Assembly: GCA_937941575.1 (NCBI GenBank)
Contig: CALDHH010000075.1
Coordinates: forward strand, 1 to 49,180
DNA: 49,180 bases
DNA from: an uncultured Alphaproteobacteria bacterium
GTDB taxonomy: Bacteria > Pseudomonadota > Alphaproteobacteria > Micavibrionales > CSBR16-224
Reading direction: 5' to 3'
Position 1 is the first letter of the stretch; every line of letters starts with the position of its first letter. Shown here in pieces: positions 3,216 through 20,276 of this stretch. The position numbers were made by a program, and so were the translations under genes. The notes beneath the pieces were generated by a model, which saw only the letters and a list, made by a program, of their open reading frames with translations, made no database searches and was not told the DNA's origin.

Positions 3216-3216
3216 A

Positions 3217-4350: not shown

Positions 4351-4384
4351 GACTACTATTACCTTTCAAAAAGTAATAAAAAAA

Positions 4385-4408
4385 GGCCGTATCAATTAAG
4401 ATACGGCC
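4385..4408. terminator. Bidirectional Rho-independent terminator between dapE (+) and the pilin gene (-)
   Basis: GGCCGTATC-AATTAA-GATACGGCC is a perfect 9-bp stem. It is flanked by A7 (4378-4384) upstream and TTTAATTTTT downstream, so a U-tract follows the hairpin on either strand. Confidence 0.85.
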
Positions 4409-4434
4409 TTTAATTTTTAAACTATTTCTAGCTA

Positions 4435-5202
4435 CTATTGGATTTTAACTAATAAACCACAATCTTTTGTAACAAGAGTTTCGTCGTAAGTATCACCAGA
4501 AGCACCACCTGTTAGACAGCTAGCAGCAACTCCGTAACCTTGTACGAAACCAGTTGTAGATTTACCGTCATCCATTTTACGGTCAATTTGTGCCGCACGG
4601 ATTGGAGTTAAAACCTGAGAACCAGCAGTTTGGCTAATCGCAGCATTTACGTTATTCTGTAATGATAATACTAATCCACTTGGTAAAACCGCACCACCAG
4701 CAACAGTAGCACCATCACCATGACCTACGTGAAAACCACCACCAATTTTAGCAGATGGGTGTGATTCACCCCATGCTGGAACTGTTGGAGTTGTCATTAA
4801 TGCATCAGATACACCAGCGATTAAATCAGCTTTTAATAGGTGTAACCAAAACATTGATGTTTCAGCGCCTACTGAAGTAACAGCAACACCAGCCTGATCA
4901 GTACCAGCAGCACCGGCAGTACCAACGATTGAGTCACCCGCAGTAGCTGCAGCTGGATCACAGTTAGTTGCACAGTTTGGTAAACGTGTAGATGCGTTTA
5001 ACATGTCACCTGGAATTGCACTAAAAGAATCACGGAAAGTAGTTGTTGCTGCTTCGTAAGATTTTACTTGCGCAATTGTCGCTGTTACACGAGCGTTTTC
5101 CATTAATTCTTGACCTTTTAAAATACCACCGATCAATAGACCAATAATTGTCATCACGATTGCTAGTTCAACAAGCGTAAAACCTTTTTCTGTTTTTTTC
5201 AT
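4435..5202 (-). CDS. pilA: Type IV prepilin, unusually large (255 aa)
   Basis: Class III signal MKKTEKG|FTLVELAIVMTIIGLLIGG has Gly(-1), Phe(+1), Glu(+5) and a hydrophobic alpha1-N helix. There is a C-x3-C pair (NCATNC) and a C-terminal C-x18-C loop (SCLTGG...KDCGLL). SD AAGGGGA lies upstream. Confidence 0.9.
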   Translation of the reverse strand: MKKTEKGFTLVELAIVMTIIGLLIGGILKGQELMENARVTATIAQVKSYEAATTTFRDSFSAIPGDMLNASTRLPNCATNCDPAAATAGDSIVGTAGAAGTDQAGVAVTSVGAETSMFWLHLLKADLIAGVSDALMTTPTVPAWGESHPSAKIGGGFHVGHGDGATVAGGAVLPSGLVLSLQNNVNAAISQTAGSQVLTPIRAAQIDRKMDDGKSTTGFVQGYGVAASCLTGGASGDTYDETLVTKDCGLLVKIQ

Positions 5203-5286
5203 ATTTATCCCCTTTACGTTATAATAAAAAAACTTATTAAATGATTTCTATAACACATTTATAAAAACCACTTATGCATAGTTAAT

Positions 5287-5299
5287 GTGAATAATTCAC
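5287..5299 (-). promoter_or_regulatory. Candidate operator: 13-nt perfect palindrome upstream of the pilin gene
   Basis: GTGAAT-A-ATTCAC lies 85 nt upstream of the pilin ATG in the 231-bp pilin/AraC intergenic region. This is motif evidence only, in an AT-rich background. Confidence 0.3.
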
Positions 5300-5433
5300 G
5301 ACTGCATGACTAATAATGTACCATAAATAGTAAACACTTCATTAACAAAGCACTATTCGACTACTCAATATGCTAACTTGATAAGTTGATAATAGTTAAG
5401 TCATTGAAATATAATAAATTGTATAAGTTAAGA

Positions 5434-6507
5434 TTATTCTTTATTTCTATAAATAGATGGAGATATACCAGTTATATCTTTGAAAACACGGTTAAATGAA
5501 GCCAAAGAGTTAAATCCAACCTCAAATGCAACTATTTTTACAGGAATCTCTGGATTATTTAGCATTCTTTTTGCATCTTCTACCCGATATCCGTTCAATA
5601 AATTGGGTACACTTTGATTAAATGCAATATTTACGACCCTTGATAATATATTTTCTGAAATATCTAGCTCCCTTGCCAGATCTGAACGGCTAAAAGACGG
5701 CTCATGATATAGTTTATCCAAGGTCATTAAGTTATTTATCTTATTTATAAGCTCTTTCTCTTCATCGTTAAGATCTTTTACATCTGATTTCTTCTTTTGA
5801 TTCTCTAATCTTAAGGATTGAGGATAGATTCTAAATAGAACAGTGGTTGCCAAATATACAAATAGTAATGAAATGGATACTCTTAATAATTCTGTCTCTT
5901 TTATATTAAAGTAATTTGTTGAATACATTAAGTTAACAGCAATAGAATATATATTCGTTGTTATGATCGATATTATAAGCCAATATTTTTCCTTACCCAT
6001 TTTTGATTTTATTAGATTCTTAAAGAAGCTATCGTGGAAAATTAACAAAAGAAGTATAAGACTTCCCAATGTTGAGCCTAATACATAGAGCCATTGAAAG
6101 AAATCATCACAATAACTAACAGCTTCATCACACATATTTGTATTTAACTTTGCCCCATAGACAATTAAGACAACAATTATTGGCATTAGAATGGTTAGAA
6201 ATTCTTTTTTCTTCGGTATATCTCCGAATCTACCAATTTGTAATATAAATAAATAGCTAACTGGGATACTAAGCGACCATAAGAACCATGAAGATAATCT
6301 TATCTCATCGTAAAAATCATTTAAACGGAATGATACATGCGAGATAAATAATAGAGCGAGTATAAAAAAGTATAATATAGCCAAAAAAGCCTGTCGCCAT
6401 TCTTTTAGACGCGATAATATATATACAAGTATTAAAACGCATTGAAATAAACCTGTAATAGCCAGCCATTCCACCGATGAAAATGTTAAATTATATATGA
6501 ATTGCAT
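5434..6507 (-). CDS. Membrane-embedded AraC/XylS-family transcriptional regulator (about 7 TM helices plus C-terminal HTH)
   Basis: About seven hydrophobic segments in residues 1-230, then a KKKSDVKDLNDEEKE linker. The AraC-type double HTH follows (SRSDLARELDISENILSRVV ... FEVGFNSLASFNRVFKDITGISPSIYR). Confidence 0.85.
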   Translation of the reverse strand: MQFIYNLTFSSVEWLAITGLFQCVLILVYILSRLKEWRQAFLAILYFFILALLFISHVSFRLNDFYDEIRLSSWFLWSLSIPVSYLFILQIGRFGDIPKKKEFLTILMPIIVVLIVYGAKLNTNMCDEAVSYCDDFFQWLYVLGSTLGSLILLLLIFHDSFFKNLIKSKMGKEKYWLIISIITTNIYSIAVNLMYSTNYFNIKETELLRVSISLLFVYLATTVLFRIYPQSLRLENQKKKSDVKDLNDEEKELINKINNLMTLDKLYHEPSFSRSDLARELDISENILSRVVNIAFNQSVPNLLNGYRVEDAKRMLNNPEIPVKIVAFEVGFNSLASFNRVFKDITGISPSIYRNKE

Positions 6508-6600
6508 TTTGAAACAGCTTTTTAACAGAGATTATTAATTTTCAATTATAATATATCCGTTTGAATAACAAGTAAAGCAGTTGAAATTCTATAGAAGCTA

Positions 6601-7335
6601 TTATTTATCTTCCCAGGTCTCACCAAATTTATCTTCGGCTGGAGAATCTTCTTGTAATCTTTCTTCAATAAATGATTGCATGAAGTTAACTTCGTTTGGG
6701 TGAAGATTCTGAGACTCGGTTGCCAATAAAGATTCAATAATTGTTTTTGCAGCTTCTTTTTCACCCAAAGCAGTTAAAACGAATATTGGCATCTGTCTTG
6801 CCCATATCGGCATATCTGGATTTTGTAAATCTGCTAGTTTATATGCAAGTTCTAATGCATATTCAAGATCATGCATTCTATATCTTGCAAGGAATACTGC
6901 ATGGGCAAGCCATCTCCATTTTTCACCTTCAGCATTATTTCCAGCTTCTGATAAATAATCAACAATTACATTAATGTCTTCTGGAACCTGAGTTGCACCA
7001 AAATAATAAGCAGCAGCCATTGAAACATGATCTGATTTTGCATCCATTTTATGAAGCAACCAAAACCAATGTTTTAACATTTGATAATCGTAATCTTTCA
7101 ACGGTGTAACACTGCCACCTGTATCACCAAGATTTTGTAATGTTAACGCACCCATTCTATAAGAAAATTGTGGGTCGCCCAATGTCATTGCCAAAGCACC
7201 TTGATAACTTGGTACTGGTGGAACGCCTGGCCATTTTGCTCTCATATTATTACTAAAAGCCCAATATAATCCATTTATAATTAAAAAGGAGAATAATAAT
7301 ATCTTAGATATGTTTAAAGATTTGTCGCTATTCAT
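6601..7335 (-). CDS. Hypothetical N-terminally anchored helical protein, translationally coupled to the ABC-2 permease
   Basis: One N-terminal TM (ILLFSFLIINGLYWAF), then a helical, repeat-like body. Its ATG overlaps the permease stop by 1 nt (TAATG at 7333-7337). I recognise no family. Confidence 0.6.
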   Translation of the reverse strand: MNSDKSLNISKILLFSFLIINGLYWAFSNNMRAKWPGVPPVPSYQGALAMTLGDPQFSYRMGALTLQNLGDTGGSVTPLKDYDYQMLKHWFWLLHKMDAKSDHVSMAAAYYFGATQVPEDINVIVDYLSEAGNNAEGEKWRWLAHAVFLARYRMHDLEYALELAYKLADLQNPDMPIWARQMPIFVLTALGEKEAAKTIIESLLATESQNLHPNEVNFMQSFIEERLQEDSPAEDKFGETWEDK

Positions 7336-8156
7336 TAAAACTGCCTACGTATTAAATCAAAATTTGCACATATAATTGTTAAGGTAATGAATACAAAACC
7401 CTGTAAGAATACAAATATTGGTAATCCCAAACTCGCAACTGCATCTATTATAAAATCACCTGTATTTTTAGAATACTCGACACTAGACATGCCATCAACT
7501 CCATATACTAACCAGCTTGTTTGACCCATAAGATCTAATCTTGGTATAATTATAGAGATAAATTCTAAGAAACTACCTAAAATTGACATTATAAAGCCAT
7601 CACCTGGTACATCTGCTATTCCAAGCAAAGTTCCAACCATTCTTGCCAAAGCATAGAAACCTAAACAAGCCAAAGCAGAACCTGCAGCACTTGATAAAAC
7701 CATTGAGAAGAACAATGCAAGACAAGAGATCAACATAAATTCAATTAAAATTGACCATCCCCAAACAAATAAACCATACATATCTGGCTTACCCAATACA
7801 AATACAGCTAGAATAACTGCAGCAGCTACTATTGCTGATAAAACAATAAACGCAAAAGCATGGCTTATTAAATATTTAGTCTTTGATATCGGTCTTGAAA
7901 GTAAAAATTCAACTTCTTTATTATCAAAAGCACGTCTTACATAGAATGATATAAATAACACTAGCCCTAAAACACCTAAGAATCTTAGACCACCTGAACC
8001 GAATACTACTGAGAAAGTTTGCTGTTCTGTCATAGATGCACTACCTAAAAACACAGCCATACTGCTACCCAACAAGATCATTAAGATCAATGTTATTACT
8101 AATTTATCTCTGAAAGCTGCTGTCAAAACATAGCTGACTAAAGGACCTGAAATCAT
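7335..8156 (-). CDS. ABC-2-type transporter permease-like membrane protein
   Basis: 273 aa with about six hydrophobic helices and no other domains, the size and topology typical of ABC-2 permeases. SD GGAG lies upstream. The assignment rests on architecture only. Confidence 0.6.
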   Translation of the reverse strand: MISGPLVSYVLTAAFRDKLVITLILMILLGSSMAVFLGSASMTEQQTFSVVFGSGGLRFLGVLGLVLFISFYVRRAFDNKEVEFLLSRPISKTKYLISHAFAFIVLSAIVAAAVILAVFVLGKPDMYGLFVWGWSILIEFMLISCLALFFSMVLSSAAGSALACLGFYALARMVGTLLGIADVPGDGFIMSILGSFLEFISIIIPRLDLMGQTSWLVYGVDGMSSVEYSKNTGDFIIDAVASLGLPIFVFLQGFVFITLTIICANFDLIRRQF

Positions 8157-8201
8157 TTTAACTCCATTATATCTTCTTAAAAAAGGTTACTCATTTAAAT
8201 A

Positions 8202-10016
8202 TTAAAGCCTGAAAGGGCGTCTATCTGAACCAAAGGTATTATATAAGTCTTTATCTGTTTGACTAATATTACTACCCGGTAAGATCGTAGATTTTATGAA
8301 TATAACAAGTTCGTTCTTGGCAATTCTATCACCCTTACTTTTGAAAAAGTTACCCAATACTGGTAAATCACCAATCACTGGAACACCCACTGTGTCAACT
8401 TCTGTACGATCTGTCATCAATCCGCCCATTACAATTACTTGACCTGATTGCATTTTTACAATTGAATCCATTTCTTGTACTGCAAGTTCAGGAATTAAGT
8501 TCTGAACTCCAGATAAAGCCGCAGCAGTCGCTGCAGGTAGAGCCGCAATTGTAATCGCAACACCTGGATCCGCAATACTACCAACTACTCTTGTAATTGT
8601 TGGTCTTAAGAACATTGAGATTTCATCAGTATCTGTATTAACAGATGGGATAACACTTAACAATATACCTTCTGGAACAGATTGCACATCACTATCAACT
8701 GTAATTGTTGTAGCACCAGTATCTTCATCTTCTTCAACATCAACATCAACATCAAAGAAAACTCGGTTTTCAACCACATTCAATATTGCAGCTTGGTTAT
8801 TTAATACTGTTATTCTTGGACTAGATAATGCTTTTACTGTACCAAATCTACTAATTGCACTTACCGCTGCTTGGATATCATTACCCGGATTAATTGCCGC
8901 AGTAAATACGTTACCAGGAGTTAATGTTGGAGAAAATACAGGTTGAGCCAAATCAACATCAAAGTTTAATAGGCCTGTTAAATTCATGGCACCACCACCA
9001 GCAGAACCCCAATCAATACCAGCAGCGAATTCATCCAAAAGACTTACTTCTAAAATCTTTGCCTCTACTAATACTTGTGTAGTTACAGCTTTTCTAAGTT
9101 TCTTTAGATATTCTTTTAAAATCTTATGCTGTCTTGCACTTGTGAATACAGATATTATTCCAGAGCTACGACTTACAGAGAATTGTGAAGCACCTGCACC
9201 AGCAGTGGCAGCAACGGCTGCAACTGGAGCTGCGCCAGCTTGTACTGTTAAACTTGGCGGAGCATTTGGATTACTTGCATCGCCACCCGCAGCAACTCTT
9301 GGTTGAGCAATCGGGTTAGCCAATGTTGCAAGAGATGTATAATTATCTGTTGATGCAAGAATTGATTCTAATGTCGCTTCTAATTCTGTCCAGAAATCTG
9401 TTTCCATTGATGTTTCAACACCAGATGCTGATCCAACATCGGCACCTTCACCAGATACAACTGATACATCGATACTAATTGAACTTTCTGTAGTTCTACT
9501 AACGTTCACGTAGTCAATTCTGTAATTTTTCATGAAAGGTCTATCAATTTCAACTCTCAAAAGACCATTCTTATAAGTATAACGCAGACCTGACATACTA
9601 CATATTCTATGAATAATTTCGTCAAAAGGTCTGTTTCTTGCTGTAAACACGATTGAACCTGAAATTTGTGGATCCAGTTCTAAATCGATTTCTGCTTGGT
9701 CAGCAAGTTCGAATAAAATATCTCTTAATGGTACAGTTTGGTTAACTGATATTGATACCAATGGCATGCTCTCAGTTTCTCCACCTGGCTCAACAACATG
9801 AGTTGCCAATTCTGGAATACCACTATCACTATCCTGAGGTAGATCTCTTGGAGCCATTGATCTTCTGTAATCAGAAGCATCTAACGATCCACTTCTATCA
9901 TGTTTCAACTGGCTTTCAACCATTTCACATGCATTCAAGAAAAACACTGAAGATACAATCACTGCAACCTTAGTAATTTTATTAACAATTTTGAAATTAT
10001 TAAATATATTTGTCAT
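8202..10016 (-). CDS. pilQ: Secretin (PilQ/MshL/GspD family), probable lipoprotein
   Basis: C-terminal secretin signature VPVIGDLPVLGNFFKSKGDRIAKNELVIFIKSTIL. N-terminal signal ends in a lipobox-like FLNAC. An Ala/Pro-rich linker (AAGGDASNPNAPPSLTVQAGAAPVAAVAATAGAGAS) separates the N domains. Confidence 0.9.
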   Translation of the reverse strand: MTNIFNNFKIVNKITKVAVIVSSVFFLNACEMVESQLKHDRSGSLDASDYRRSMAPRDLPQDSDSGIPELATHVVEPGGETESMPLVSISVNQTVPLRDILFELADQAEIDLELDPQISGSIVFTARNRPFDEIIHRICSMSGLRYTYKNGLLRVEIDRPFMKNYRIDYVNVSRTTESSISIDVSVVSGEGADVGSASGVETSMETDFWTELEATLESILASTDNYTSLATLANPIAQPRVAAGGDASNPNAPPSLTVQAGAAPVAAVAATAGAGASQFSVSRSSGIISVFTSARQHKILKEYLKKLRKAVTTQVLVEAKILEVSLLDEFAAGIDWGSAGGGAMNLTGLLNFDVDLAQPVFSPTLTPGNVFTAAINPGNDIQAAVSAISRFGTVKALSSPRITVLNNQAAILNVVENRVFFDVDVDVEEDEDTGATTITVDSDVQSVPEGILLSVIPSVNTDTDEISMFLRPTITRVVGSIADPGVAITIAALPAATAAALSGVQNLIPELAVQEMDSIVKMQSGQVIVMGGLMTDRTEVDTVGVPVIGDLPVLGNFFKSKGDRIAKNELVIFIKSTILPGSNISQTDKDLYNTFGSDRRPFRL

Positions 10017-10132
10017 TTAAACTAAACCCTTTTACTTCCCTAAAACCGATATTCAATATGATAAAGAATATATCACAATAAAAAAACCCTTTTTTTCTTT
10101 TTTCTTCAAATAGTTCTAATATTTCTTTAAAT

Positions 10133-11263
10133 CTATAAAGAAAGCCTCGATGTATCTATCTGTGGAAGCCCAGATGATGAGTCTTTGCCCCCTAATTCGT
10201 ATTGTTGTATTTTCATCTTCATATCTGATGAAATATCCGCTTCTACAATAGCTGTTTCACTAGTTATTGTATTTTCTGTGTATAATTTGAACAAAGATTG
10301 ATCAAAAGTTACCATTCCAAGAGCATTATTCTTTGCCATTACATCTGATATACCTTTGGTCTTTCCTTTTAATATTAATTCTTTTACTAATGCTTCGTTT
10401 AGCAACACCTCTAATGCCACAACTACTCCGCCACCTTTTTTAGCAACAAGCCTTTGAGATACGATTGATCTTAAATTCATTGATAAAGCAATTCTTATTT
10501 GCATTTGTCTTTCTTCTGGGAAGAAATTAATTATACGCTCAATTGCTTGCGATGCATTATTTGTATGGATTGTACTTAAGCATAAATGCCCAGTTTCTGC
10601 AGCACTTATTGCTTGCTCCATTACTTCTTCATCTCTTACTTCACCGACCAAGATAACATCTGGCTTTTGTCTTAATGCATTTTTTAATGCAACATTATAT
10701 GAAACGGTATCAATACCAACTTCACGTTGAGTAATAATACAGCCTTTATGAGCATGATAATATTCAACCGGATCTTCAATTGTTATGATATGACCAGAAC
10801 CCTTTGTATTACGGTAATCCATCATTGATGCCAAAGATGTTGATTTACCAGATGAAGTCACACCAGAAATTAAAATAAGGCCACGTTTTTCCATAGCCAG
10901 CATTTTGAAGACTTCAGGCAGGTTTAATTCTTCAAAACTAGGTATATCAGAAGTAATACGTCTGATAACCATTCCTGGATGTTGTCTTTGCTTTAAAACA
11001 TTTATACGAAATCTACCTTGTTGTCCCATATCTAATGCTAGATTCAATTCCATATTTGCATCAAATTCACGTCTTTGACGGCTGGTTAAAACTTCACTTA
11101 ACATCCCCTCAAGATCTTCAACTTCTAGTTTTTCATCTGTAATTGTGCTAAGTTTATTATCTTTACGAATTGTTGGTGGAACCCCTACTGTTAAGTATAA
11201 ATCAGTTGAGGACTGACTAACCATCTCATCCAGATATGTATATATTGCAATCCCACTACTCAA
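10133..11263 (-). CDS. pilU: PilU-like PilT-family hexameric ATPase
   Basis: Walker A GVTSSGKST, Asp box ITIEDPVEY, Walker B DVILVGEVRD and His box GHLCLSTIHT. N-terminus resembles PilU (DLYLTVGVPPTIR) and it lacks the AIRNLIRE motif. TTG start overlaps the pilT stop (TTGA). Confidence 0.85.
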   Translation of the reverse strand: MSSGIAIYTYLDEMVSQSSTDLYLTVGVPPTIRKDNKLSTITDEKLEVEDLEGMLSEVLTSRQRREFDANMELNLALDMGQQGRFRINVLKQRQHPGMVIRRITSDIPSFEELNLPEVFKMLAMEKRGLILISGVTSSGKSTSLASMMDYRNTKGSGHIITIEDPVEYYHAHKGCIITQREVGIDTVSYNVALKNALRQKPDVILVGEVRDEEVMEQAISAAETGHLCLSTIHTNNASQAIERIINFFPEERQMQIRIALSMNLRSIVSQRLVAKKGGGVVVALEVLLNEALVKELILKGKTKGISDVMAKNNALGMVTFDQSLFKLYTENTITSETAIVEADISSDMKMKIQQYELGGKDSSSGLPQIDTSRLSL

Positions 11264-12465
11264 AACGAATATCCTCCATCCATTTCTGAATCAACTTGAC
11301 TAGCCGGTATCTCTTGGACTGGGCTAGGATTATTTGGATTATGCTGAGGTGTAGCTTGCTTCTGTGCTGTCTCTGGCTTTCTCTCATCGCTATTTTCTTC
11401 ACCATGGCCATCATCAGATGCGATATCACCCATTTCATCAGCACCATCTTTCAATGCGTCTTGAGCAACTTCTTCTGAAATAAGATCAGCATCAAGTAAA
11501 TCATTTAAAGAATCTTCCATGGTCTGCATCCCGTATCTTGCACCGGTCTGAATCATTGAATAAACTTGGGCTAACTGATTTTCTCTAATCAAGTTACGAA
11601 CAGCATTTGTTCCAACCATGATCTCATGCGCGGCTACACGGCCACCAGTTTTTCTTTTTAATAGTTTCTGAGCAATTACACCCTGAACAGAACTTGATAA
11701 CATGGCCCGAACCATACCTTTTTCTGCAGCAGGGAAAACGTCAATAATACGGTCAATAGTCTTTGCAGCAGAACTTGAGTGAAGAGTTCCAAAAACCAAG
11801 TGACCTGTCTCAGCAGCAGTTAGAGCAAGTGATATTGTTTCATAATCACGCATCTCACCAACTAGAATAACATCTGGATCTTCACGCAAGGCACTTTTCA
11901 AAGCTTTAGAGAATGATTTGGTATCCGTACCGACTTCTCTGTGATTAACCAAGCTTTTATTTGATTGGTGATAAAATTCAACCGGATCTTCAATTGTTAG
12001 AATATGTTCATTTCTTGTATCATTAATATAATCGATCATTGATGCCAATGTAGTTGATTTACCACTACCCGTTGGACCAGTTACCAATACGATACCCTGT
12101 TTCACTTCCGATAAATGGCGCATAATCGGTGGAAGACCTAAATCTGCCATTTTGGGGATTTTAGTTGGAATCACACGAAATACTGCCGCGGCCCCCACTC
12201 TATTTGTAAAAGCATTCACACGAAAACGAGCATTCTCTCCAAATGAAATCGCAAAATCTATTTCTTGCTCTTTCTCATATTCGGCTCTTTGCTCATCGGT
12301 CATGATTGAATATAACATCGATTTAATACTATCGCTTGTTAACTCTTCTGACTTAATTTTACGAAGTTCACCATCTACTCTTATTATCGCGGGGTTTGAA
12401 CCACTCAAATGTAAATCTGATGCATCGTTTTTCATTGTAAACGAAAGTAATTGTGTAATATCCAA
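11260..12465 (-). CDS. pilT: PilT twitching-motility (retraction-type) ATPase with a ~60-aa acidic C-terminal extension
   Basis: Starts MDITQLLSF...ASDLHLS like canonical PilT. Walker A GPTGSGKST, LTIEDPVEF, DVILVGEMRD, GHLVFGTLHS and the PilT-specific AVRNLIRE are present. TTG start is preceded by a strong SD AGGGGGA. Residues ~341-401 are an extra low-complexity acidic/Pro tail. Confidence 0.92.
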   Translation of the reverse strand: MDITQLLSFTMKNDASDLHLSGSNPAIIRVDGELRKIKSEELTSDSIKSMLYSIMTDEQRAEYEKEQEIDFAISFGENARFRVNAFTNRVGAAAVFRVIPTKIPKMADLGLPPIMRHLSEVKQGIVLVTGPTGSGKSTTLASMIDYINDTRNEHILTIEDPVEFYHQSNKSLVNHREVGTDTKSFSKALKSALREDPDVILVGEMRDYETISLALTAAETGHLVFGTLHSSSAAKTIDRIIDVFPAAEKGMVRAMLSSSVQGVIAQKLLKRKTGGRVAAHEIMVGTNAVRNLIRENQLAQVYSMIQTGARYGMQTMEDSLNDLLDADLISEEVAQDALKDGADEMGDIASDDGHGEENSDERKPETAQKQATPQHNPNNPSPVQEIPASQVDSEMDGGYSF

Positions 12466-12603
12466 TCTTTTATCCCCCTTGAAAGATTTAGAAAATTTAT
12501 AGCTAAGCCTAAAAATAATCCATATAAGTTAATAAATTATTATCATATAAAAAAAACATTATAGCTATGTCTAAATAAACTATTTAAGCTTATTTTAAAT
12601 AAG

Positions 12604-13431
12604 CTACATTCCCATTTTGTAAAAAACTCCACCATCGAAGATTAAGCAAATTAAAAATGCCAATATCAAAGATGGCCCGAATGGAAATTCTTCTCTACCT
12701 GTAATTTTTTTCCAGAATAAAGATATAAAGATACCACTTAGACCAGAGATTAATAAGAACATCGGTGAAGATAAATTACCGATCCATAAACCAGCTACAA
12801 AGAAAAACTTAACATCACCAAGTCCCATTGGCTCTCGTTTCATTATCTTCATAAATATTGCTCTTAATAAAAATGATCCTATCCCGAAAGTTAGAGCACT
12901 TATTAGCGCGTATTTACCTGTATCTTTTAAATAATAAACAAATTCACCGCTATAACATGCTTCAATCAAGAGCATGATTAAACCCAATATAAATAAAGAT
13001 AAATTAAGTCTATTTGGTATAATTTGAAATTCAAAATCAATTGCAATTATTGCAACCATTATGAAAGACATTAAGAATAATGGGATTAATCTATAATCTA
13101 ATGGAAAGATAAGAAAGAATATAAGGCATAATAACGCAGTAGATAGTTCAATCACTGGGTATCTGATGCTAATTTTTTTCTTACAATATCTACATTTTCC
13201 GCCTGAGAATAACCAAGAGAACACTGGAAATAAATCCAATATACCCAGAACATGGTTACAACTTGGGCAATGCGAACGGCTTATTTTTTCTTTATCTAGC
13301 TTCTTCTTTGGAGATATCATAGATATTCCCCTTGGCATGCGATAGCTAAGCGCTGTCGCGAAGCTACCTAAACACATACCAATTACGAATACCGTTATTA
13401 CTTCTAACGCAAAGATAATTTCTGAATACAT
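12604..13431 (-). CDS. pilD: Prepilin peptidase / N-methyltransferase (A24 family)
   Basis: Cytoplasmic CPSC...CRYC tetracysteine motif, multiple TM helices, and catalytic Asp motifs IAIDFEFQIIPN and MGLGDVKFF. Confidence 0.92.
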   Translation of the reverse strand: MYSEIIFALEVITVFVIGMCLGSFATALSYRMPRGISMISPKKKLDKEKISRSHCPSCNHVLGILDLFPVFSWLFSGGKCRYCKKKISIRYPVIELSTALLCLIFFLIFPLDYRLIPLFLMSFIMVAIIAIDFEFQIIPNRLNLSLFILGLIMLLIEACYSGEFVYYLKDTGKYALISALTFGIGSFLLRAIFMKIMKREPMGLGDVKFFFVAGLWIGNLSSPMFLLISGLSGIFISLFWKKITGREEFPFGPSLILAFLICLIFDGGVFYKMGM

Positions 13432-13455
13432 TTATAGTTATTTCCAAAAATTATA

Positions 13456-15015
13456 CTATTGAATAGCAATAAGGCGTTTTTTAATCTGTTTCACTGGAAT
13501 TACACCTTTGTAATCGCCTGCGTAATACAGATTTAAAGCTTCTCTATAAAGATGAGCAGCTGAACTCTTTTTGCCCATACGATCATAGATAACAGCTCTA
13601 TTAAATATATATCCAACATTCTTATCATCTAAGCTAGATGCAATATTTAGATATTTTATCGCTTTACCATACTCATTTAAATCACCATATGCGCTCCCCA
13701 ATTGACCAGCAACTCCGGCATTACCTGGGTAAGAGCCTCTTAATTGTTGTAATTTATCCGCTGCAAATCTTGGAGATTCTTTTCTTAGAACACCCAACAT
13801 ATTTGTTAGAGCATCAAGATTTTTTGGATCTCTTTTTAAAGTTTTCTCATATGTTTTTAAAGCTGAAGCTGTATCACCACTTCTTTGATAAGCAATAGCA
13901 AGACCCATAAGAACTCTTGAATCTTTTGGTTTATCTGATCTTAAATCTTGGAACATTTCCAATGCAGTTGCGTATCTTCCTTCTGATAAAGCACGTCTTG
14001 CCGCAGATAGTCTTGCATCAACGCTATTTGACCCTCTACTTCTTTTTAATACAAAATATTTAGGATTTAAGTCACGAATTACAGCCGGCTTTTCTAATTC
14101 ATTTAAAGTACTGCTTCTATTTGGACCTTGACCAAGTGGTGCGATCGGGGCATCGCCATCAATAACACCTAATGTTTGTGCTTGTTCTAAAGATTCTGCT
14201 GGCGGTGCCATTTCTTTTAAAGTATCAGTATTCGCAATTAATGCTTTCTCTGCATCAGTTGGCTCTGTAATATTTTCAATTGCTTCCATTGGTATATCTT
14301 GCACAACATCAATATTCTCAACTGGTATTCCACCCATCATTTGATTAGGGTCCATAGCCATTTGCTCTAAACCAGCATCCATTGACATCATTTGATCTGG
14401 CACAGGAATTCCCTCTGGCATATTCTTTATATCTGTTATTTCTCCATCAGCAAATTCCGATAGCTCTGACATTGCATCAGAGGTCTTTTCTTCTGCACCA
14501 GACAATATTTGGCCTGTTGTATCTGCTAATTTTTGAGCACTACCTTCTGTAATTTCAACGATATCTCCAGTTGTCTCGTTAATTGATGAAATAGTACCAT
14601 CAAGCTCGGTAGTAAATTCACCACTATCCAAAGCAGAGACAGTTTCTTCTATCACACCATCTTCTGCAGGAATCGGTGGGAAATCAACATCTGATATTTC
14701 ATTTAAATCACCTAGACCTGATAAATCTGAATCTACTGCAACATTATCCATGCCAGTATTCATTGGATCAATTTGATTATCCATTCCTGTGTTCATTGGA
14801 TCCATATTACCTTGGGCAACTATTCCATTATTTGGAGCAGGTTTATCACCAGATGTAAAAAAGTAATATGCGCCACCAAGTGCCAGAGCCAAAGATACAA
14901 AGCCACCTAATACTAAGGCTTTCTTCTTTCCTTTTCCGCCTGATCTTTCTCCATCAAACTCAATTTCGTCACCAAGGTTAAAATCAACTTCTTCTGTCAT
15001 GTTATCGTCACTCAT
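13456..15015 (-). CDS. TM-anchored acidic-linker plus TPR protein (MshN/PilF-like pilus assembly factor)
   Basis: KGKKK followed by a TM (ALVLGGFVSLALALGGAYYFF), then a ~270-aa highly acidic region with a DPMNTGMDN tandem repeat. The C-terminal ~190 aa have TPR-like periodicity (GRYATALEMFQDL, GDTASALKTYEKTLKRDPKN, YGKAIKYLNIASSLD). Confidence 0.7.
   Translation of the reverse strand: MSDDNMTEEVDFNLGDEIEFDGERSGGKGKKKALVLGGFVSLALALGGAYYFFTSGDKPAPNNGIVAQGNMDPMNTGMDNQIDPMNTGMDNVAVDSDLSGLGDLNEISDVDFPPIPAEDGVIEETVSALDSGEFTTELDGTISSINETTGDIVEITEGSAQKLADTTGQILSGAEEKTSDAMSELSEFADGEITDIKNMPEGIPVPDQMMSMDAGLEQMAMDPNQMMGGIPVENIDVVQDIPMEAIENITEPTDAEKALIANTDTLKEMAPPAESLEQAQTLGVIDGDAPIAPLGQGPNRSSTLNELEKPAVIRDLNPKYFVLKRSRGSNSVDARLSAARRALSEGRYATALEMFQDLRSDKPKDSRVLMGLAIAYQRSGDTASALKTYEKTLKRDPKNLDALTNMLGVLRKESPRFAADKLQQLRGSYPGNAGVAGQLGSAYGDLNEYGKAIKYLNIASSLDDKNVGYIFNRAVIYDRMGKKSSAAHLYREALNLYYAGDYKGVIPVKQIKKRLIAIQ
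14743..14802 (-). repeat. Tandem 33-nt coding repeat (2 copies) inside the TPR-protein gene
   Basis: attatccatgccagtattcattggatc (14743-14769) vs attatccattcctgtgttcattggatc (14776-14802). They encode DPMNTGMDN twice. Confidence 0.8.
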
Positions 15016-15048
15016 TTTACTTTTCTTTCAATAAATATATTTATAAAT

Positions 15049-15786
15049 TTATGCTGCTTTTTGACTATCTATAGTCTCCAAGAACGCTCTCTCAAGATAT
15101 TCCTGCCCTGATTGCTTCTTTAACTCTGCTGGAGTTCCAACAAATAAAAGATCGCCGCCATGAATTACACTTACTCTGTCACAAATTTCATCCATATCCG
15201 CTAAAATATGTGAGCTCATAAACACTGTGATACCTTCTTTTTTACATTTCAATATCTCATCTTTAACATTTGCTCTAGCTCTTGGATCTAGACCACTCAT
15301 CGGCTCATCTAAAATCAGCAAAGGACATTTTGTTAATAGAGTTCCTAATAATCCAACTTTTTGGCGCATACCTTTTGAGTAAGTATTTACTCTGCGTCTT
15401 AAAGCTTTCTCATCTAAAGATACTCTTTCTGCAGCTTCAATAATCTCTTTTTCATCAATCTCTCTATTATATAACTTTAACGAGAATTTAATGAACTCTA
15501 TACCAGATAAAAAATTTGGTGGCTCAAAACGCTCTGGTAAGTAAGCAAGTTTCTCTTTGCTAGATTTATCCAAATCATTGCCACCGAAAAACTTAATTGA
15601 TCCAGAGCTTGAAGCCATTAAGCCAAGCAATACTTTAATAAATGTTGTTTTACCAACACCGTTAAGCCCCATAAGCCCAAAAATCTCTCCTGCACCTACT
15701 TCAAAATTAATGTCTCTTATTACGTCATCACCGCCGTAATTCGCAGCAATATCCTTTACTAATAAAACACTATCTTTTTTAACCAT
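15049..15786 (-). CDS. ABC transporter ATP-binding protein (ABC-2/DrrA-like single NBD)
   Basis: Walker A GLNGVGKTT, signature-like YSKGMRQKVGL, Walker B LLILDEPMSGLD and H-loop SSHIL. 245 aa with no fused TM domain. Confidence 0.9.
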   Translation of the reverse strand: MVKKDSVLLVKDIAANYGGDDVIRDINFEVGAGEIFGLMGLNGVGKTTFIKVLLGLMASSSGSIKFFGGNDLDKSSKEKLAYLPERFEPPNFLSGIEFIKFSLKLYNREIDEKEIIEAAERVSLDEKALRRRVNTYSKGMRQKVGLLGTLLTKCPLLILDEPMSGLDPRARANVKDEILKCKKEGITVFMSSHILADMDEICDRVSVIHGGDLLFVGTPAELKKQSGQEYLERAFLETIDSQKAA

Positions 15787-15815
15787 TATTTCTTTTCCTA
15801 ATTTTATATTATTAA

Positions 15816-16478
15816 TTAACCTGGCAGTAAAATACCACTTTGAATATCATATACTTGATGTGGTCTCATATTGATTGTGATAATTTTATTAAACACAGAA
15901 TCAAACCATTCCAAATATACACTATCTCTTTTTACATGTATTCCAACGATCTCTGGCAATAAATAACCTGGGGTTAGTCTTTTACCATTAATCCATACAA
16001 TCCAATTATTTGAAGAATTATAAAGCAATCCATCAACATCAATTATACGCTTAGGAGCTTCTTCACCTTCTCCACCAAGTGTCGCATCTTTACCAGATAA
16101 GGCTCTTTCTAATGTCAGAACCTCTAAAGGAGTTAAGAATAGAGATGAAGAGAAGCCTGGTGTATTATTCGTATAAATTCTTGCTTTAACCTCTGCCAAT
16201 AGTTTTGCAGCTGTTTCTTTTCTTTTTGCTTCTTTTTCTTCCGGTGTCTCTTCTGTTACAGATTCAGCAACCTCTACTGGTGCAGACTGCCCCGGAGGTA
16301 CAGATGGATCAATCATATCATCTGGGTTGGAAGCCTGCATATCCATTTGTTGCATCTGTTGTTCCATTTGCAATTGCTCAGCAGTTTGCGCATTAACCGA
16401 CTGATTTACAAATATGAAACATATTGTAAGCAGAGCTGCAAATCCTGATAATCTTTTAATTTTATTTAAAAATAACAT
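15816..16478 (-). CDS. Secreted PilP/MshK-like pilus alignment protein
   Basis: Signal peptide (ALLTICFIFVNQSVNA|QT), Q/M/E-rich linker and a C-terminal small beta domain (WIVWINGKRLTPGYLLPEIVGIHVKRDSVYLEW). The domain is reminiscent of PilP/MshK/GspC-HR, and the gene sits after the pilO-like gene. Confidence 0.55.
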   Translation of the reverse strand: MLFLNKIKRLSGFAALLTICFIFVNQSVNAQTAEQLQMEQQMQQMDMQASNPDDMIDPSVPPGQSAPVEVAESVTEETPEEKEAKRKETAAKLLAEVKARIYTNNTPGFSSSLFLTPLEVLTLERALSGKDATLGGEGEEAPKRIIDVDGLLYNSSNNWIVWINGKRLTPGYLLPEIVGIHVKRDSVYLEWFDSVFNKIITINMRPHQVYDIQSGILLPG

Positions 16479-16497
16479 TCTATTTAAACCTTATAAA

Positions 16498-17151
16498 CTA
16501 TTTAACAAAGCCAGATTGACCGTTTTTATCACCTGGTGTCGCCTGCAAACTTTGCCAATCGAAAACAAGTTTTCCCTCCATTATTGGCTCAGCTTCACCA
16601 TCTACAATCTTATTAAGAAGGTCATTATCAACTTTACCTACTTTTTCAAGCTTGAACATATGTATTCTTGTATGGCCAGGAAAAGATTTATCTATCCATT
16701 CAATAAATTGATAAATATCCGTGTCTAAAAATGCATTTAATCTGTTTAGCTCAATTCTACTATTGATTAACTTATATCCTGCAATTTTGGCATCTTTATT
16801 TTCAATTTCTTGTAGCGCACTAATTTTATATTCAAAACCTGATACTCCTGATGCACGTCTTATTTCTTCTAATACGTCACCCACCATAAATCTATCTTGA
16901 TTAATAAAGAAACCATCTTGTTCCATATTTTCAAAATCACCCAAGCTGGCTCTTAATGCTTTCAGTTCTTCCTTAATATTCAAAATTTTACTTCTAAATC
17001 CAGATATATCCGTTTTCAATGTGCTTAATTCTTTTTCTGTATCTTTTCTAAGTGGTTCAACCCATAAGAAGAAGGCACCTGCTAAGGATACAGCAATGAA
17101 TATTAATACCGATATAATAGCTAATCTTCGTACACCAATTAATTTTATCAT
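16498..17151 (-). CDS. PilO/GspM/MshJ-like bitopic inner-membrane protein
   Basis: Short N-terminus, one TM (LAIISVLIFIAVSLAGAFFLW), a coiled-coil (EKELSTLKTDISGFRSKILNIKEELKALR) and a ~100-aa periplasmic domain. ATGA overlap with the upstream gene. Confidence 0.65.
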   Translation of the reverse strand: MIKLIGVRRLAIISVLIFIAVSLAGAFFLWVEPLRKDTEKELSTLKTDISGFRSKILNIKEELKALRASLGDFENMEQDGFFINQDRFMVGDVLEEIRRASGVSGFEYKISALQEIENKDAKIAGYKLINSRIELNRLNAFLDTDIYQFIEWIDKSFPGHTRIHMFKLEKVGKVDNDLLNKIVDGEAEPIMEGKLVFDWQSLQATPGDKNGQSGFVK

Positions 17152-18824
17152 AACGGCACTCCTATGACTTTAAATCTTGCCATTTCTTCATCTTTAGCAC
17201 TAGATCCTCCACCGACAGAAGATCCTCCACCATCCGACGCAGTACCAATTTTAGCCGAGAAAACACCCGTTCTAGATACACCACCGAATTGCTTCTCCAT
17301 TGTTATTTCATGATCTGGCAAAGCACCTCTTAATCTTTTTAAGAAAGATTCAGTTTCAGCAACTTTTTCTTCCAAAGGCATATCATTCGGTAAAGAATAA
17401 GAGAAGAATAGTTCAAAATAACCGTTATCAGCAAGCTTCTTTGAACCCTTACCGGTCATTTTAGCCATAATTTTCTTTAACACATCTGATTGTTTTTTAG
17501 CGCCACCATTTTTATCCGGAAGATCAATTTTTGCATTTGGAACATGTCTATAACTCATATCTGCTAAAAACACTTCTGATCCTAAATTATCTCTAACCAC
17601 TTTTAAAACAGGCTCTGGACTTATTGAGTTCTCTACCAATAAACCCTTCACTGCAAGCGACCCCCTAACCACATCTGGTTTTACAGGGACAGCAGCAAAT
17701 ATAGCTGCCTCTTGATCATATTCTCTTTTTAAAAGATTATATTGTGTCTTATTTTGGGCGATTTCTGAGTGAACTTCTCTATATTCAGCAAAGCTACTAT
17801 AAAGCATGTAAGACAGACCGATTGCAGCAAGAAGCAACAATATACTTCCGAATTTAACAGCCATCCTTGGCAATACAATTTTTGAGATCTCTTCAATTTT
17901 TAAATTTAAAGAAGGACCGCCTTTTTTACCAATCCAACCTGCATGAACTGCATCTGAATATTTTGGTTTAACACCTTTGCCGTATTTAAAGCCAATTAAC
18001 TTTCCGGCTTCATGAACCGTCATTGGATAAAAATTACTTACAGGCAAACCAACAGATTGCATTGCTTCTTTTTCAGCCGCACCGGATACAACAAAAACAT
18101 CCAATCCTTCAGATGGGTTATAACCAAATCTTGCAACATAACTTAGAGTAGCTTTAAATTCTTTGGCAACCTCTTCTGCCCATGCAGTACCGCTTGATAC
18201 ATTTTCTGCCATTGGCGTCAGCCTTGTCAAAGCAAGGTCACCATCTTTAATTACAACTTGCCTTAAACCACCTGTTTCATGTTGACCTATAAATACGATC
18301 CATCTAGACGCCATCTCATTAGTGCTGTTTAAATTCTTCTTTGCTAATTCTTGTAACATGCTTGCAGATTCTACTGGTAATAGACAAACACCCGATACAT
18401 GGACACCAGCTTCGAAAATGGCATTAATAATCTTGTTAATGTTTTCAGTCTCTGGCAAACCAGCCAATAAATAAGAATCCGGTGAATCTACCTTCATCAG
18501 TTTATCACGTTTCTTCTTACCTTTAAGCTCTAAAGCTCCGCGGATCTTCGTATTTGAAAAAGCAGAATCAATCTTTCTCTTAAGAATTTTAGGTTTATCC
18601 AATGAACTTACTTTTGGTAATGTTTCCTTACGATAATGCTGTTCAACAACATCAAAAACAAGCCTTACAGATTTACCGCTATTTTTTTCGGTAAATACAT
18701 TTATCAGCTGCTCTTCAAAATCCGGAACAGACCAAGGAATTGAACATTCATGTTCAACATTCTTACCTGATGATAAGTATAAAACTACACCTTCATCTCC
18801 AATTAAAAGTACTCTTTTAGCCAC
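17148..18824 (-). CDS. PilM-PilN fusion (MshI/GspL-like) inner-membrane assembly protein
   Basis: A ~320-aa cytoplasmic actin-like/GspL-like domain (VLLIGDEGVVLY..., VSGVCLLPVESASML, LRQVVIKDGDLALTRL). A single TM (FGSILLLLAAIGLSYMLYSSF) and a ~210-aa periplasmic part with a Gly/Ser tail follow. GTG start. Confidence 0.7.
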   Translation of the reverse strand: MAKRVLLIGDEGVVLYLSSGKNVEHECSIPWSVPDFEEQLINVFTEKNSGKSVRLVFDVVEQHYRKETLPKVSSLDKPKILKRKIDSAFSNTKIRGALELKGKKKRDKLMKVDSPDSYLLAGLPETENINKIINAIFEAGVHVSGVCLLPVESASMLQELAKKNLNSTNEMASRWIVFIGQHETGGLRQVVIKDGDLALTRLTPMAENVSSGTAWAEEVAKEFKATLSYVARFGYNPSEGLDVFVVSGAAEKEAMQSVGLPVSNFYPMTVHEAGKLIGFKYGKGVKPKYSDAVHAGWIGKKGGPSLNLKIEEISKIVLPRMAVKFGSILLLLAAIGLSYMLYSSFAEYREVHSEIAQNKTQYNLLKREYDQEAAIFAAVPVKPDVVRGSLAVKGLLVENSISPEPVLKVVRDNLGSEVFLADMSYRHVPNAKIDLPDKNGGAKKQSDVLKKIMAKMTGKGSKKLADNGYFELFFSYSLPNDMPLEEKVAETESFLKRLRGALPDHEITMEKQFGGVSRTGVFSAKIGTASDGGGSSVGGGSSAKDEEMARFKVIGVPL

Positions 18825-18859
18825 GAGAACCCCACTTATTTATAAAATATAATTTCAAT

Positions 18860-20068
18860 TTATATCCCCATATTCGAAAAGCTATTGTAAATTGGACCAA
18901 ATACAGCAGCCGCAATCCATAACATAATACCACCAAGAATAACCGTCATCATTGGCTCAATCATCTGAATCATTGAATCGACCGCTTCGTTCACATCTTT
19001 ATCATAAAATTCTGCAACTTGTTCTAAAACTCCAGTCAAGTTACCAGATTCCTCACCAATCTTCACCATTCTTACCACCAATGATGGAAACTCACCTGAG
19101 TTATTTAAGGCTGTTGATATTGGGTTACCTTCTTTTACCTGTTCTCTTACACGCTCTAACGCCTCTTGCATCACAAGATTACCGGCAGTTTTCTGAGCAG
19201 ATTCTAGACATCTCAAGATCTCCAAACCACTACTAAACAATACACCAAATGTTTGGGCAAATCTTGATAATGAAATCTTTCTTATCAAAATCCCCATTAC
19301 CGGCATATTCAGAGCAAGCTTATCAGTTTGATATCTAAAACCTGTTGAAACTGCGCGTCCAATTTTTATACTGGCGATAAACACCACTATTCCGATACCC
19401 ACATATAGACCATTAGCAACGAAGAAGTCCGAAGTTGCGATCAATGAAGTGGTTATCATACCTAATTCCTGATCCATACTTTCTAAGAATCCTAAAACCT
19501 GCGGTACAACATATGCCATCATCAAAGTTACAACACCGAACATAACCACACCCAGTATTTTTGGATATTTTGTGGCCTGTTTAACTTTTGAATCCATCGC
19601 ATCAGTCCATTTAAGGTGATGGATAAGCTGAGTAAATGAATTGGATAAGTTACCGGTTTCTTCACCAGCACCAATTAATGAGATAAATATATTAGTAAAT
19701 ACAGATGGGTGATTTGACATCGCCTCAGATAATGAATTACCCTCTGATACATCTCTGTATACTTCGGTCATGATATCTCTAAGCTTGGCTGATTCAGTTG
19801 TGTCACGGATATCAGACAAACCATCCATTAATGGTACACCAGCTTTCTGTAGCTGTTCTAGATGTACGAATAATTGCACCATGTCACGAGTTTTAATTTT
19901 TGCTTTAAATGCCGCTTTTTTCTTTTTGGTTTCCATGGATTTTGCTTCGATAAGCTCCATGCCACGTTCAGATAATTGTTGGGCTAAATCTTTTTCGTTC
20001 GCCGCAGATATAGAGCCTCTAACGGCCCTACCTTGGTTATCAATCGCGCGATAATTATATTTATTCAT
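18860..20068 (-). CDS. pilC: Type IV pilus / T2SS platform protein (PilC/GspF family)
   Basis: 402 aa with a duplicated GspF-type cytoplasmic domain (LSEAMSNHPSVFTNIFISLIGAGEETGNL and ISTALNNSGEFPSLVVRMVKIGEESGNL) and three TM segments. Confidence 0.92.
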   Translation of the reverse strand: MNKYNYRAIDNQGRAVRGSISAANEKDLAQQLSERGMELIEAKSMETKKKKAAFKAKIKTRDMVQLFVHLEQLQKAGVPLMDGLSDIRDTTESAKLRDIMTEVYRDVSEGNSLSEAMSNHPSVFTNIFISLIGAGEETGNLSNSFTQLIHHLKWTDAMDSKVKQATKYPKILGVVMFGVVTLMMAYVVPQVLGFLESMDQELGMITTSLIATSDFFVANGLYVGIGIVVFIASIKIGRAVSTGFRYQTDKLALNMPVMGILIRKISLSRFAQTFGVLFSSGLEILRCLESAQKTAGNLVMQEALERVREQVKEGNPISTALNNSGEFPSLVVRMVKIGEESGNLTGVLEQVAEFYDKDVNEAVDSMIQMIEPMMTVILGGIMLWIAAAVFGPIYNSFSNMGI

Positions 20069-20253
20069 TCCCTAAATTTCCCCGTAAGATAATATAATTT
20101 AACAATAATACACTAACTAATTTAAGATAATGACAAAACTTTACCAATTAGTTACCGTTTTAAAAATTTATTATATTAATAGTCATTTATTGAAATATAA
20201 ATAACATATTTTCATTCTATAATTAAATAACACCTTTGGTAAAGGGTAAAAAA

Positions 20254-20276
20254 GCCATTAATTAGTAATTAATGGC
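20254..20276 (-). terminator. Rho-independent terminator after fadE, upstream boundary of the pilus island
   Basis: GCCATTAATTA-g-TAATTAATGGC is a perfect 11-bp stem. It is flanked by A6 (20248-20253) and T6 (20277-20282), so a U-tract follows on either strand. Confidence 0.8.

Follow-up and report, generated by a model that had tools for sequence, protein, structure and literature searches.

What kind of machine is encoded by a type IVa pilus (T4aP)-like gene cluster that holds no gene for an extension ATPase, carries genes of an ATP-binding cassette (ABC) transporter among its pilus genes and lies in the genome of an alphaproteobacterium? The question is raised by contig CALDHH010000075.1 (assembly GCA_937941575.1) of an uncultured alphaproteobacterium, of which positions 1–49,180, referred to here as the window, were analyzed. 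In the open reading frame (ORF) listing of the window, 14 tightly packed, co-oriented minus-strand ORFs fill positions 4435–20068 in the transcription order pilC-MN-O-P-ABCa-TPR-pilD-pilT-pilU-secretin-ABCp-X-AraC-pilin (Table 1; ABCa, ABC ATPase; TPR, tetratricopeptide repeat protein; ABCp, ABC permease). A first-pass annotation, made from the sequence alone, had described an island of 16 co-oriented genes here; the shared orientation is correct, and the number of genes is 14, as it also is in that annotation's own order list. We consider it probable, at about 0.78, that the block represents in this genome a T4aP-like system characteristic of Micavibrio-related alphaproteobacteria, encoded at a single chromosomal locus and inherited vertically.

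A gene order shared by Micavibrio-like bacteria

At least 193 species-level genomes encode a relative of the PilM-PilN protein, and we fetched 80 of these 193 loci and mapped the proteins of the window on them. The PilM-PilN homologues are 33–47% identical and come from Micavibrio and from unclassified alphaproteobacterial metagenome-assembled genomes (MAGs). All relatives are Micavibrio-like MAGs or isolates. The earlier reading of an envelope-spanning, T4aP-like locus in an alphaproteobacterium is borne out. The order pilB-pilC-MN-O-P-ABCa-TPR-pilD-pilT-pilU-Q-ABCp-X, with Q for the secretin gene, is found essentially everywhere that the fetched loci cover it: ABCa is flanked by the P and TPR genes in 71 of 71 loci, the secretin gene is followed by ABCp in 42 of 42, and ABCp in turn by X in 31 of 31. 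With X as anchor, a metagenome scan added many contigs, and in 36 metagenome loci X is followed by the AraC and pilin genes in 27 cases and directly by the pilin gene in five. The window shares with these clusters of the Micavibrio type both the synteny and orthologous MN and X proteins. It is the member of the family with the lowest GC content, the most AT-rich, and its closest relative is locus L003 (83% identity for PilT, 70% for PilC and 71% for ABCa).

The order is also present in a cultured organism, M. aeruginosavorus ARL-13, where GMV_1530–GMV_1544 form an identical series of 15 genes, similar in size and transcribed (RNA-seq supplement, PMC3189940). The pilin gene GMV_1530 is among the most expressed genes, with a GEI of 34.5 in the attack phase and 196.5 in the attachment phase, and GMV_1531 is the AraC counterpart; PilT, PilU, ABCa, ABCp and X correspond to GMV_1536, GMV_1535, GMV_1539, GMV_1533 and GMV_1532, respectively. 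Unlike the window, which has an acyl-CoA dehydrogenase gene next to pilC, ARL-13 has a 1929-bp PilB-type gene there, GMV_1544. Identity across the two groups, that of Micavibrio and that of the window, is about 30–35% for PilMN and 55–75% for PilC and PilT. Wang et al. (2011) single out the highly expressed pilin in their text and otherwise mention "dispersed pil genes" and an incomplete type II secretion system (T2SS) (PMC3189940). The ARL-13 locus is poorly annotated, with four genes called "hypothetical" and one "putative membrane protein", and in the literature that we searched we found no paper characterizing the Micavibrio pilus locus; the ARL-13 genome holds additional prepilin operons elsewhere. 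The view that the gene order matches no known arrangement must therefore be given up after the proposed synteny comparison, and the first-pass annotation had named as decisive against its reading that the order be a well-annotated, characterized locus in a described relative, of which the order itself was found and the characterization was not. Neither the gene order nor the missing ATPase is exceptional at the level of the system, and what is left is a widespread, expressed pilus variant of bacterial predators with an obligatory ABC/TPR module, together with a small chance that the machine truly lacks PilB.

The GC content of the block, 30–39%, equals that of its flanks, which hold housekeeping genes: recR, dapD and dapE on one side, and the acyl-CoA dehydrogenase gene, groES/EL, fpg, dnaA, dsbD, PBP1A, mlaFE, alr, dnaB and leuB on the other. 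We therefore regard it as a chromosomal operon cluster and not as a compositional island, and a mobile or horizontally acquired island was rejected on the same grounds. None of the 14 ORFs is truncated in comparison with the relatives or carries a frameshift or internal stop, and the catalytic motifs are kept; gaps between the genes span -4 to 138 bp, and ahead of the pilin gene the gap is 231 bp. Both of the strong hairpin terminators reported at the borders are real by folding, and the one at 4382–4411 also by terminator scan. The one that forms the 3′ boundary has a 12-bp stem with six GC pairs, T-runs on both strands and a dG of -20.6 / -19.9 (z -7.5 / -8.1 against shuffled sequence); the hairpin upstream of pilC has z -6.1 / -6.5, and a promoter-like site lies close to it at 20243–20214.

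Micavibrio-like bacteria live as obligate epibiotic predators, and their use as living antibiotics has been proposed. The cluster would be their conserved pilus machine, with retractile adhesion to prey or surfaces as its likely role. A 621-kb metagenome contig of 41% GC (L085:12001-16235) shares the downstream synteny with window positions 1775–5202; its pilin gene is convergent with dapE, followed by ORFs like dapD and recR in size and order. This is probably the nearest long relative of the window, and its pilC/pilB end lies outside the fetched flank.

Table 1. Features of the pilus cluster and its borders, in order of transcription (window coordinates; TM, transmembrane; AF2, AlphaFold2).
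Feature	Position	Strand	Basis
Intergenic region: terminator hairpin of the acyl-CoA dehydrogenase gene (~20249-20285) and promoter-like site	20069-20303		Folding, scan
PilC/GspF inner-membrane platform protein, first cluster gene here	18860-20068	-	T2SSF 1.3e-57, two stretches
Predicted PilM-PilN fusion, 558 aa, GspL-like architecture	17148-18824	-	AF2 and Foldseek
O: bitopic; N-terminal TM helix, coiled coil, C-terminal domain	16498-17151	-	PilO/GspM-like by position and topology only
P: signal peptide, low-complexity linker, Trp-rich C-terminal domain	15816-16478	-	PilP-like by position only
ABCa: ABC ATPase, DrrA/GldA/Pmt ABC-2 exporter type	15049-15786	-	ABC_tran 1.1e-24
Bitopic TPR protein	13456-15015	-	Multiple TPR families at E 1e-13; hydropathy
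PilD, bifunctional prepilin peptidase/N-methyltransferase	12604-13431	-	A24_N_bact 2.4e-27 and Peptidase_A24 1e-14
PilT retraction ATPase	11260-12465	-	TIGR01420 484 bits; T2SSE 2.8e-54
PilU-type retraction ATPase	10133-11263	-	TIGR01420 424 bits
Lipoprotein secretin, 604 aa, MshL/GspD-like, not PilQ-like	8202-10016	-	Secretin (PF00263) 2.3e-30, Secretin_N_2
ABCp: divergent six-TM ABC-2-type permease, 273 aa	7335-8156	-	ABC2_membrane_4 E 0.008; hydropathy
X: N-terminal TM helix and all-alpha TPR-like repeat domain	6601-7335	-	AF2 pLDDT 88
Membrane AraC-family regulator	5434-6507	-	HTH_18 1.4e-17 at residues 277-355
AT-rich 231-bp region, presumed pilin promoter	5203-5433	-	Promoter motif scan
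Prepilin, 255 aa	4435-5202	-	N_methyl 2e-7; TIGR02532 above cutoff
Bidirectional intrinsic terminator between convergent dapE and prepilin genes; 3′ cluster boundary	4382-4411	both	Terminator scan, folding

Parts of the machine and their classification

Profile annotation of the cluster proteins gave matches for PilC, PilD, PilT, PilU, the secretin, the TPR protein, the ABC ATPase, the AraC helix-turn-helix and the prepilin, and upholds what had been read from the sequence for each of them. The best NCBIfam match of PilC is GspF (334 bits), although the GspF and PilC models all stay below their equivalog cutoffs. The 558-aa protein encoded after pilC has no sequence-level match in Pfam or the PDB, and its family profile gave nothing significant against PDB sequences. 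Its AF2 model, built from 21 homologues (pLDDT 78), consists of a cytoplasmic actin-like domain (residues 1–300), a TM helix and coiled coil (311–376) and a periplasmic alpha/beta domain. Foldseek places PilM structures at the top (5eou, 2ych and 3jc8_Ma, E 5e-9 to 6e-7) and also finds the cytoplasmic domain of GspL/EpsL (E 5e-6 to 7e-5). On the predicted structure, the protein is thus a PilM-PilN fusion with GspL-like architecture, as had been proposed. The names PilO-like and PilP-like for the two following proteins reflect position and topology and found no sequence or profile support: neither protein has a match in Pfam, NCBIfam or PDB profiles, and in an hhalign comparison of O with the PilN part of the MN family the coiled coil alone was aligned, at a probability of 20%. 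The Trp-rich domain of P spans about 90 aa and is conserved in the family alignment.

The secretin has its best NCBIfam match in MshL (TIGR02519, 209.6 bits; cutoff 250.2), scores 77 bits on the PilQ model (cutoff 284), and is nearer to GspD than to PilQ among solved structures (60 versus 40 bits). Its lipobox Cys and a C-(D/E)-L-x-K-N-Q motif are kept in 58 of 60 family members, in agreement with the lipoprotein assignment. The TPR protein has a short N-terminus, a TM segment at residues 34–52, a long acidic low-complexity linker and C-terminal TPRs at about 330–500; partial matches to PilW, Tgl and GltE stay below cutoff. It may act as a periplasmic scaffold or secretin-assembly factor. PilD shows the GLGDVK and CxxC...CxxC motifs, and both retraction ATPases are above the TIGR01420 cutoff of 319 bits. 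PilT has the AVRNLIRE motif and ends in a tail of about 55 aa, and PilU has intact Walker A and B motifs and is without the AIRNLIRE motif.

Several T4aP hallmarks are thus found in the window, namely a class III pilin leader, PilD, PilC, PilT together with PilU, and PilM/PilN as a fusion; minor pilins and a PilY1 priming complex are missing from it, the prepilin being single. PilT and PilU mark T4aP and were lost in T2SS, and the model of the mannose-sensitive hemagglutinin (MSHA) pilus makes MshM mandatory and has neither a prepilin peptidase nor PilT in the locus (PMC6668835). With the PilT/PilU pair and PilD in the locus, we therefore group the system with T4aP. Membership of the MSHA class was rejected: PilD, PilT and PilU are present, profile searches found no MshM (an ExeA-type AAA protein) in the locus, and the MshL score falls below its cutoff. 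An MshE ATPase with an MshEN domain is not in the window, and the PilB of the relatives carries NF053729 above cutoff. Neither GspC, GspH/I/J/K nor a short GspG was detected in the window by profile searches and a six-frame prepilin scan. The lack of GspC/H/I/J/K, the length of the pilin and the presence of retraction ATPases argue against a T2SS. The system is best described, as far as its genes tell, as a distinct variant of the T4aP machine, typical of Micavibrio-like alphaproteobacteria. Its mix of T4aP motors, an MshL/GspD-like secretin and a GspL-like fusion is informative on how type IV filament machines diversified.

Comparison with described systems places the variant between several of them. 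It resembles Myxococcus xanthus, likewise a predatory organism, in having nearly the whole T4aP machine in one chromosomal locus, with PilT, PilC, PilD, PilM/N-type proteins and a secretin, a PilB in the family (396 bits against M. xanthus PilB, 3jc8_Ba) and, within the cluster, genes for an ABC ATPase, a permease and an accessory factor. The M. xanthus order, pilB-pilT-pilC-pilS-pilR-pilA-pilG-pilH-pilI-pilD-pilMNOPQ, is different, however, and in the window PilM and PilN form one protein, an MshL/GspD-like lipoprotein serves as the secretin, PilU is in the cluster, a multi-TM AraC protein stands in place of PilS/PilR, pilB is not linked, and the ABC ATPase gene lies apart from the permease and accessory genes. 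With the MSHA locus of Vibrio cholerae (mshI-Q) the cluster shares its single-locus layout, a secretin that best matches MshL, a TPR protein in the cluster, which may be the equivalent of MshN, and, in the relatives, an ATPase with an MshE-type N-terminal motif that binds cyclic di-GMP (c-di-GMP). In contrast to MSHA, it has PilD, PilT and PilU in the locus, no MshM, and a secretin at 209.6 bits where the MshL cutoff is 250.2. T2SS-like features are the actin-like/TM/periplasmic fusion of GspL type, the closeness of the secretin to GspD and the GspF match of PilC, whereas PilT and PilU, the 255-aa pilin, the lack of GspC and GspH/I/J/K and a family ATPase nearer to PilB than to GspE set it apart from T2SS.

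ABCa matches drrA (TIGR01188, 1.6e-47) and GldA (1.7e-39), with Walker A, signature, Walker B and H-loop all intact. No NCBIfam model matches ABCp, and the profile of its family matches PmtD, a permease, along 170 residues (E 0.007). Of the interleaved transporter pair described earlier, the ATPase stands, and the ABC-2 identity of the permease is tentative. The start of X overlaps the stop of ABCp by 1 nt, and X is translationally coupled to the permease. All 1003 proteins of the X family are annotated "hypothetical"; X has no Pfam or NCBIfam match, its family profile gave nothing significant against PDB sequences, and Foldseek returned for its model nothing beyond generic TPR or YfgM-like matches (E > 0.04) and no specific neighbour. 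We suggest that ABCp is the partner of ABCa and that X is an accessory factor of the same module. The module had been listed as a deviation from described loci, yet it has a precedent: M. xanthus has a pilA-pilG-pilH-pilI operon whose annotation names an ABC ATPase (PilH), a permease (PilI) and an accessory factor (PilG). Piliation depends on each of these three proteins, and similar genes occur in other deltaproteobacterial T4aP clusters (PMC3546991, PMC3724824, PMC6060248). In architecture and context, ABCa, ABCp and X would parallel PilH, PilI and PilG (MXAN_5781, MXAN_5780 and MXAN_5782). A second, independent and strictly syntenic case in a cultivable organism opens to experiment the question, standing since 1998, of what the Myxococcus proteins do. 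Upstream of pilB, at a distance of a few kb, several relatives of group 1 have a second ABC ATPase gene of ordinary type, and in L001:1720-3305 a second ABC ATPase gene is followed by an ABC2_membrane permease gene, a pair distinct from the cluster's own ABC module.

The unlinked pilB and competing readings

In 64 of the 68 genome loci with enough upstream sequence, among them L003 and ARL-13 (GMV_1544), pilB lies directly upstream of pilC. The encoded proteins have 585–750 aa with MshEN and T2SSE domains, reach about 500 bits on TIGR02538, pass the MshE-type c-di-GMP motif NF053729, and score 396–425 bits against solved T4aP PilB versus 337 bits against GspE. The corresponding slot in the window is taken by the terminator, the promoter-like site and the acyl-CoA dehydrogenase gene, and tblastn found neither PilB nor a pilB remnant in the 49 kb. 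The reported absence of a PilB/GspE/MshE ATPase is accordingly true of the window but not of the system. Most likely, it is an effect of gene location and of seeing one contig, and we hold it very likely that pilB is located elsewhere in this genome.

The window is not alone in this respect. In L019 and L025–27, rpoZ lies directly upstream of pilC (L019:420-845, L025:8079-8552 and L027:8084-8548, with an NYN-domain gene preceding rpoZ in L025), and L023 is also without pilB in the slot; JAJZTA01, JAJZVA01, JAJZFS01 and PLXM01 are among the relatives with an unlinked pilB. Since the pilB-linked L003 and L004 are closer to the window than these unlinked loci, the unlinking of pilB probably happened more than once. 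In the AT-rich relatives L156:223-4356 and L162:205-4180 (GC 31–35%), pilD is followed directly by the secretin gene and pilT/pilU are not in their usual place, which suggests that the cluster is fragmented in low-GC lineages, as with the pilB of the window. A lone family-type pilB amid housekeeping genes is seen in P0241, 65% identical to L003 PilB. Among the 120 PilB homologues found, eight were compared at full length, and P0188, a 726-aa protein encoded on a 32,211-bp contig, has the most AT-biased amino-acid composition of these eight. It shares a long acidic N-terminal extension with L003 PilB and is nearest to it (69%), as the PilMN of the window is nearest to that of L003; a test of divergence consistency fits, although it does not discriminate. 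On these circumstantial grounds, P0188 is a reasonably likely candidate for the PilB of this genome. P0147 and P0140, two further AT-leaning PilB hits, were rejected, being linked to pilC in other organisms. In L165:5757-9872 and L166:3143-7258 a gene for a GGDEF-EAL protein lies directly upstream of pilB, which together with the c-di-GMP motif in the PilB N-terminus hints at local c-di-GMP control of pilus extension.

A cluster of this composition could be read in other ways, and each has some evidence in its favor. That the ABC ATPase, the permease and X are unrelated passengers sitting among the pilus genes might be argued from the five genes that separate the ATPase and permease genes and from the lack of detectable similarity between the ABC/X genes and any pilus protein. 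Their positions are nevertheless invariant in every locus counted, while PilMN is just 30–46% identical, and such invariance over deep divergence, together with the coupling of X to the permease, speaks strongly against passengers, as does the lack of another transmembrane-domain or nucleotide-binding-domain partner nearby and the requirement for the Myxococcus trio in piliation; we regard this reading as improbable, if the least so of those discussed here. Somewhat less probable still is a T2SS-like system in which a pseudopilus serves the export of hydrolytic proteins and no surface pilus is built. It would agree with the GspD structures as nearest solved relatives of the secretin, the GspL architecture and GspL/EpsL matches of the fusion and the GspF match of PilC, and Wang et al. 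(2011) counted for M. aeruginosavorus a "functional type II secretion system" lacking GspC/G/H/K (PMC3189940), a count that probably refers to these cluster genes. It conflicts with PilT and PilU inside the cluster, T4aP marks that T2SS have lost (PMC6668835), with the length of the pilin (255 aa), its T4a-type leader, its C-terminal cysteines and its very high expression in ARL-13, with the lack of GspC/H/I/J/K homologues, and with a family PilB nearer to T4aP PilB than to GspE.

The unlinked pilB allows two further readings, both of which we judge very unlikely. The genome could truly lack a PilB-type ATPase, with the AT-rich lineage, and possibly other pilB-unlinked ones, having lost PilB and making a retractile pilus in which extension is driven by a bidirectional PilT/PilU paralogue or by the ABC ATPase or module. 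The window has neither pilB nor a remnant, pilC is clearly the first gene behind a terminator and promoter-like site, two hexameric ATPases and the ABC ATPase are kept intact, pilB-unlinked clusters recur in other lineages, and a single bifunctional motor has been discussed for the Caulobacter Tad system (PMC6668835); if true, a T4aP-like machine lacking a PilB-type motor would be seen here for the first time. However, pilB adjoins pilC in nearly all relatives, stand-alone family-type pilB genes exist, P0188 matches in composition, PilT and PilU of the window are ordinary family members above cutoff without an N-terminal MshEN domain, and what has been seen of the genome is 49 kb. Alternatively, the block could be a decaying remnant that after the loss of pilB is no longer a functional pilus machine, as the empty pilB slot, the position as most AT-rich family member, which may indicate genome reduction, and the AT-rich L156 and L162 without pilT/pilU in the cluster might suggest. 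Decay is contradicted by 14 full-length ORFs with intact catalytic motifs and no frameshift or internal stop, and by identities to L003 that are as high as those of other group members.

We thus favor a chromosomal, vertically inherited T4aP-like system of Micavibrio-related bacteria, and several points weigh against it. The family is known from its genes and, in ARL-13, from transcripts. The extension ATPase is not in the 49-kb window, which is the part of the MAG seen, and P0188 is tied to this genome by circumstantial evidence. No similarity to PilO or PilP could be detected for the O and P proteins, and the permease match is weak at E ~0.007. The ABC trio is likened to Myxococcus PilH/I/G by architecture and context, and with an MshL/GspD-like secretin and a GspL-like PilM-PilN fusion the machine is no textbook T4aP.

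Proposed assembly, pilin and regulator

We propose that PilC, the PilM-PilN fusion and, with roles suggested by their place in the cluster, O and P would form the inner-membrane and periplasmic assembly platform, and that the MshL-like lipoprotein secretin would provide the outer-membrane pore, which the bitopic TPR protein probably assembles or anchors. PilD would cleave and methylate the 255-aa prepilin, a PilB-type ATPase with an MshE-type c-di-GMP-binding N-terminus, most likely encoded on another contig, would extend the fibre, and PilT and PilU would retract it. By analogy with Myxococcus PilH/PilI/PilG, ABCa, ABCp and X may constitute a dedicated exporter module needed for pilus biogenesis. 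The membrane AraC regulator would control its presumed target, the adjacent pilin gene, in place of PilS/PilR and sigma-54.

The prepilin has a short T4a-type leader, MKKTEKG, ahead of FTLVELAIV..., with F+1, E+5 and two C-terminal cysteines. A motif scan of all six frames found no second prepilin in the window, so that the single prepilin without minor pilins reported from the sequence is confirmed there. In relatives, 1–7 tandem prepilin paralogues are found downstream of the AraC gene (L095:13317-18465; L099:11896-20693; L113/L114), and in some of these relatives prepilin-like proteins reach 414, 529 and 738 aa; such very large ones could be tip adhesins or minor pilins.

The AraC protein has an N-terminal part of about 230 aa with some five to seven TM segments and a C-terminal HTH_18/HTH_AraC domain. 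Its family and its place beside the pilin gene are as had been described; the seven TM segments are approximate, five passing a strict threshold and two weaker ones being seen by eye. Profile searches found no PilS/PilR-type domains in the window proteins, as the first-pass annotation had stated, and the presumed pilin promoter region holds on the minus strand no sigma-54 site (TGGCAC-N5-TTGCW with at most 2 mismatches, or GG-N10-GC). The lack of a sigma-54 promoter fits a one-component membrane sensor that replaces PilS/PilR, and we suggest that the AraC protein is such a regulator of the adjacent pilin gene.

Elsewhere in the window, an Rfam scan of the whole 49 kb gave no family above threshold, hence no tRNA, rRNA or riboswitch. 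The most AT-rich part (GC 29–33%) holds an ORF of 1174 aa at 23468–26992 (plus strand) without a Pfam match, preceded by a 102-aa ORF at 23025–23333 (plus strand), likewise without one. An ORF of 314 aa at 61–1005 (plus strand), which has no NCBIfam match, lies where the AT skew is unusually high (0.30 over 1–1000). Both dnaA (36062–37468) and dnaB (46024–47496) are located in the window.

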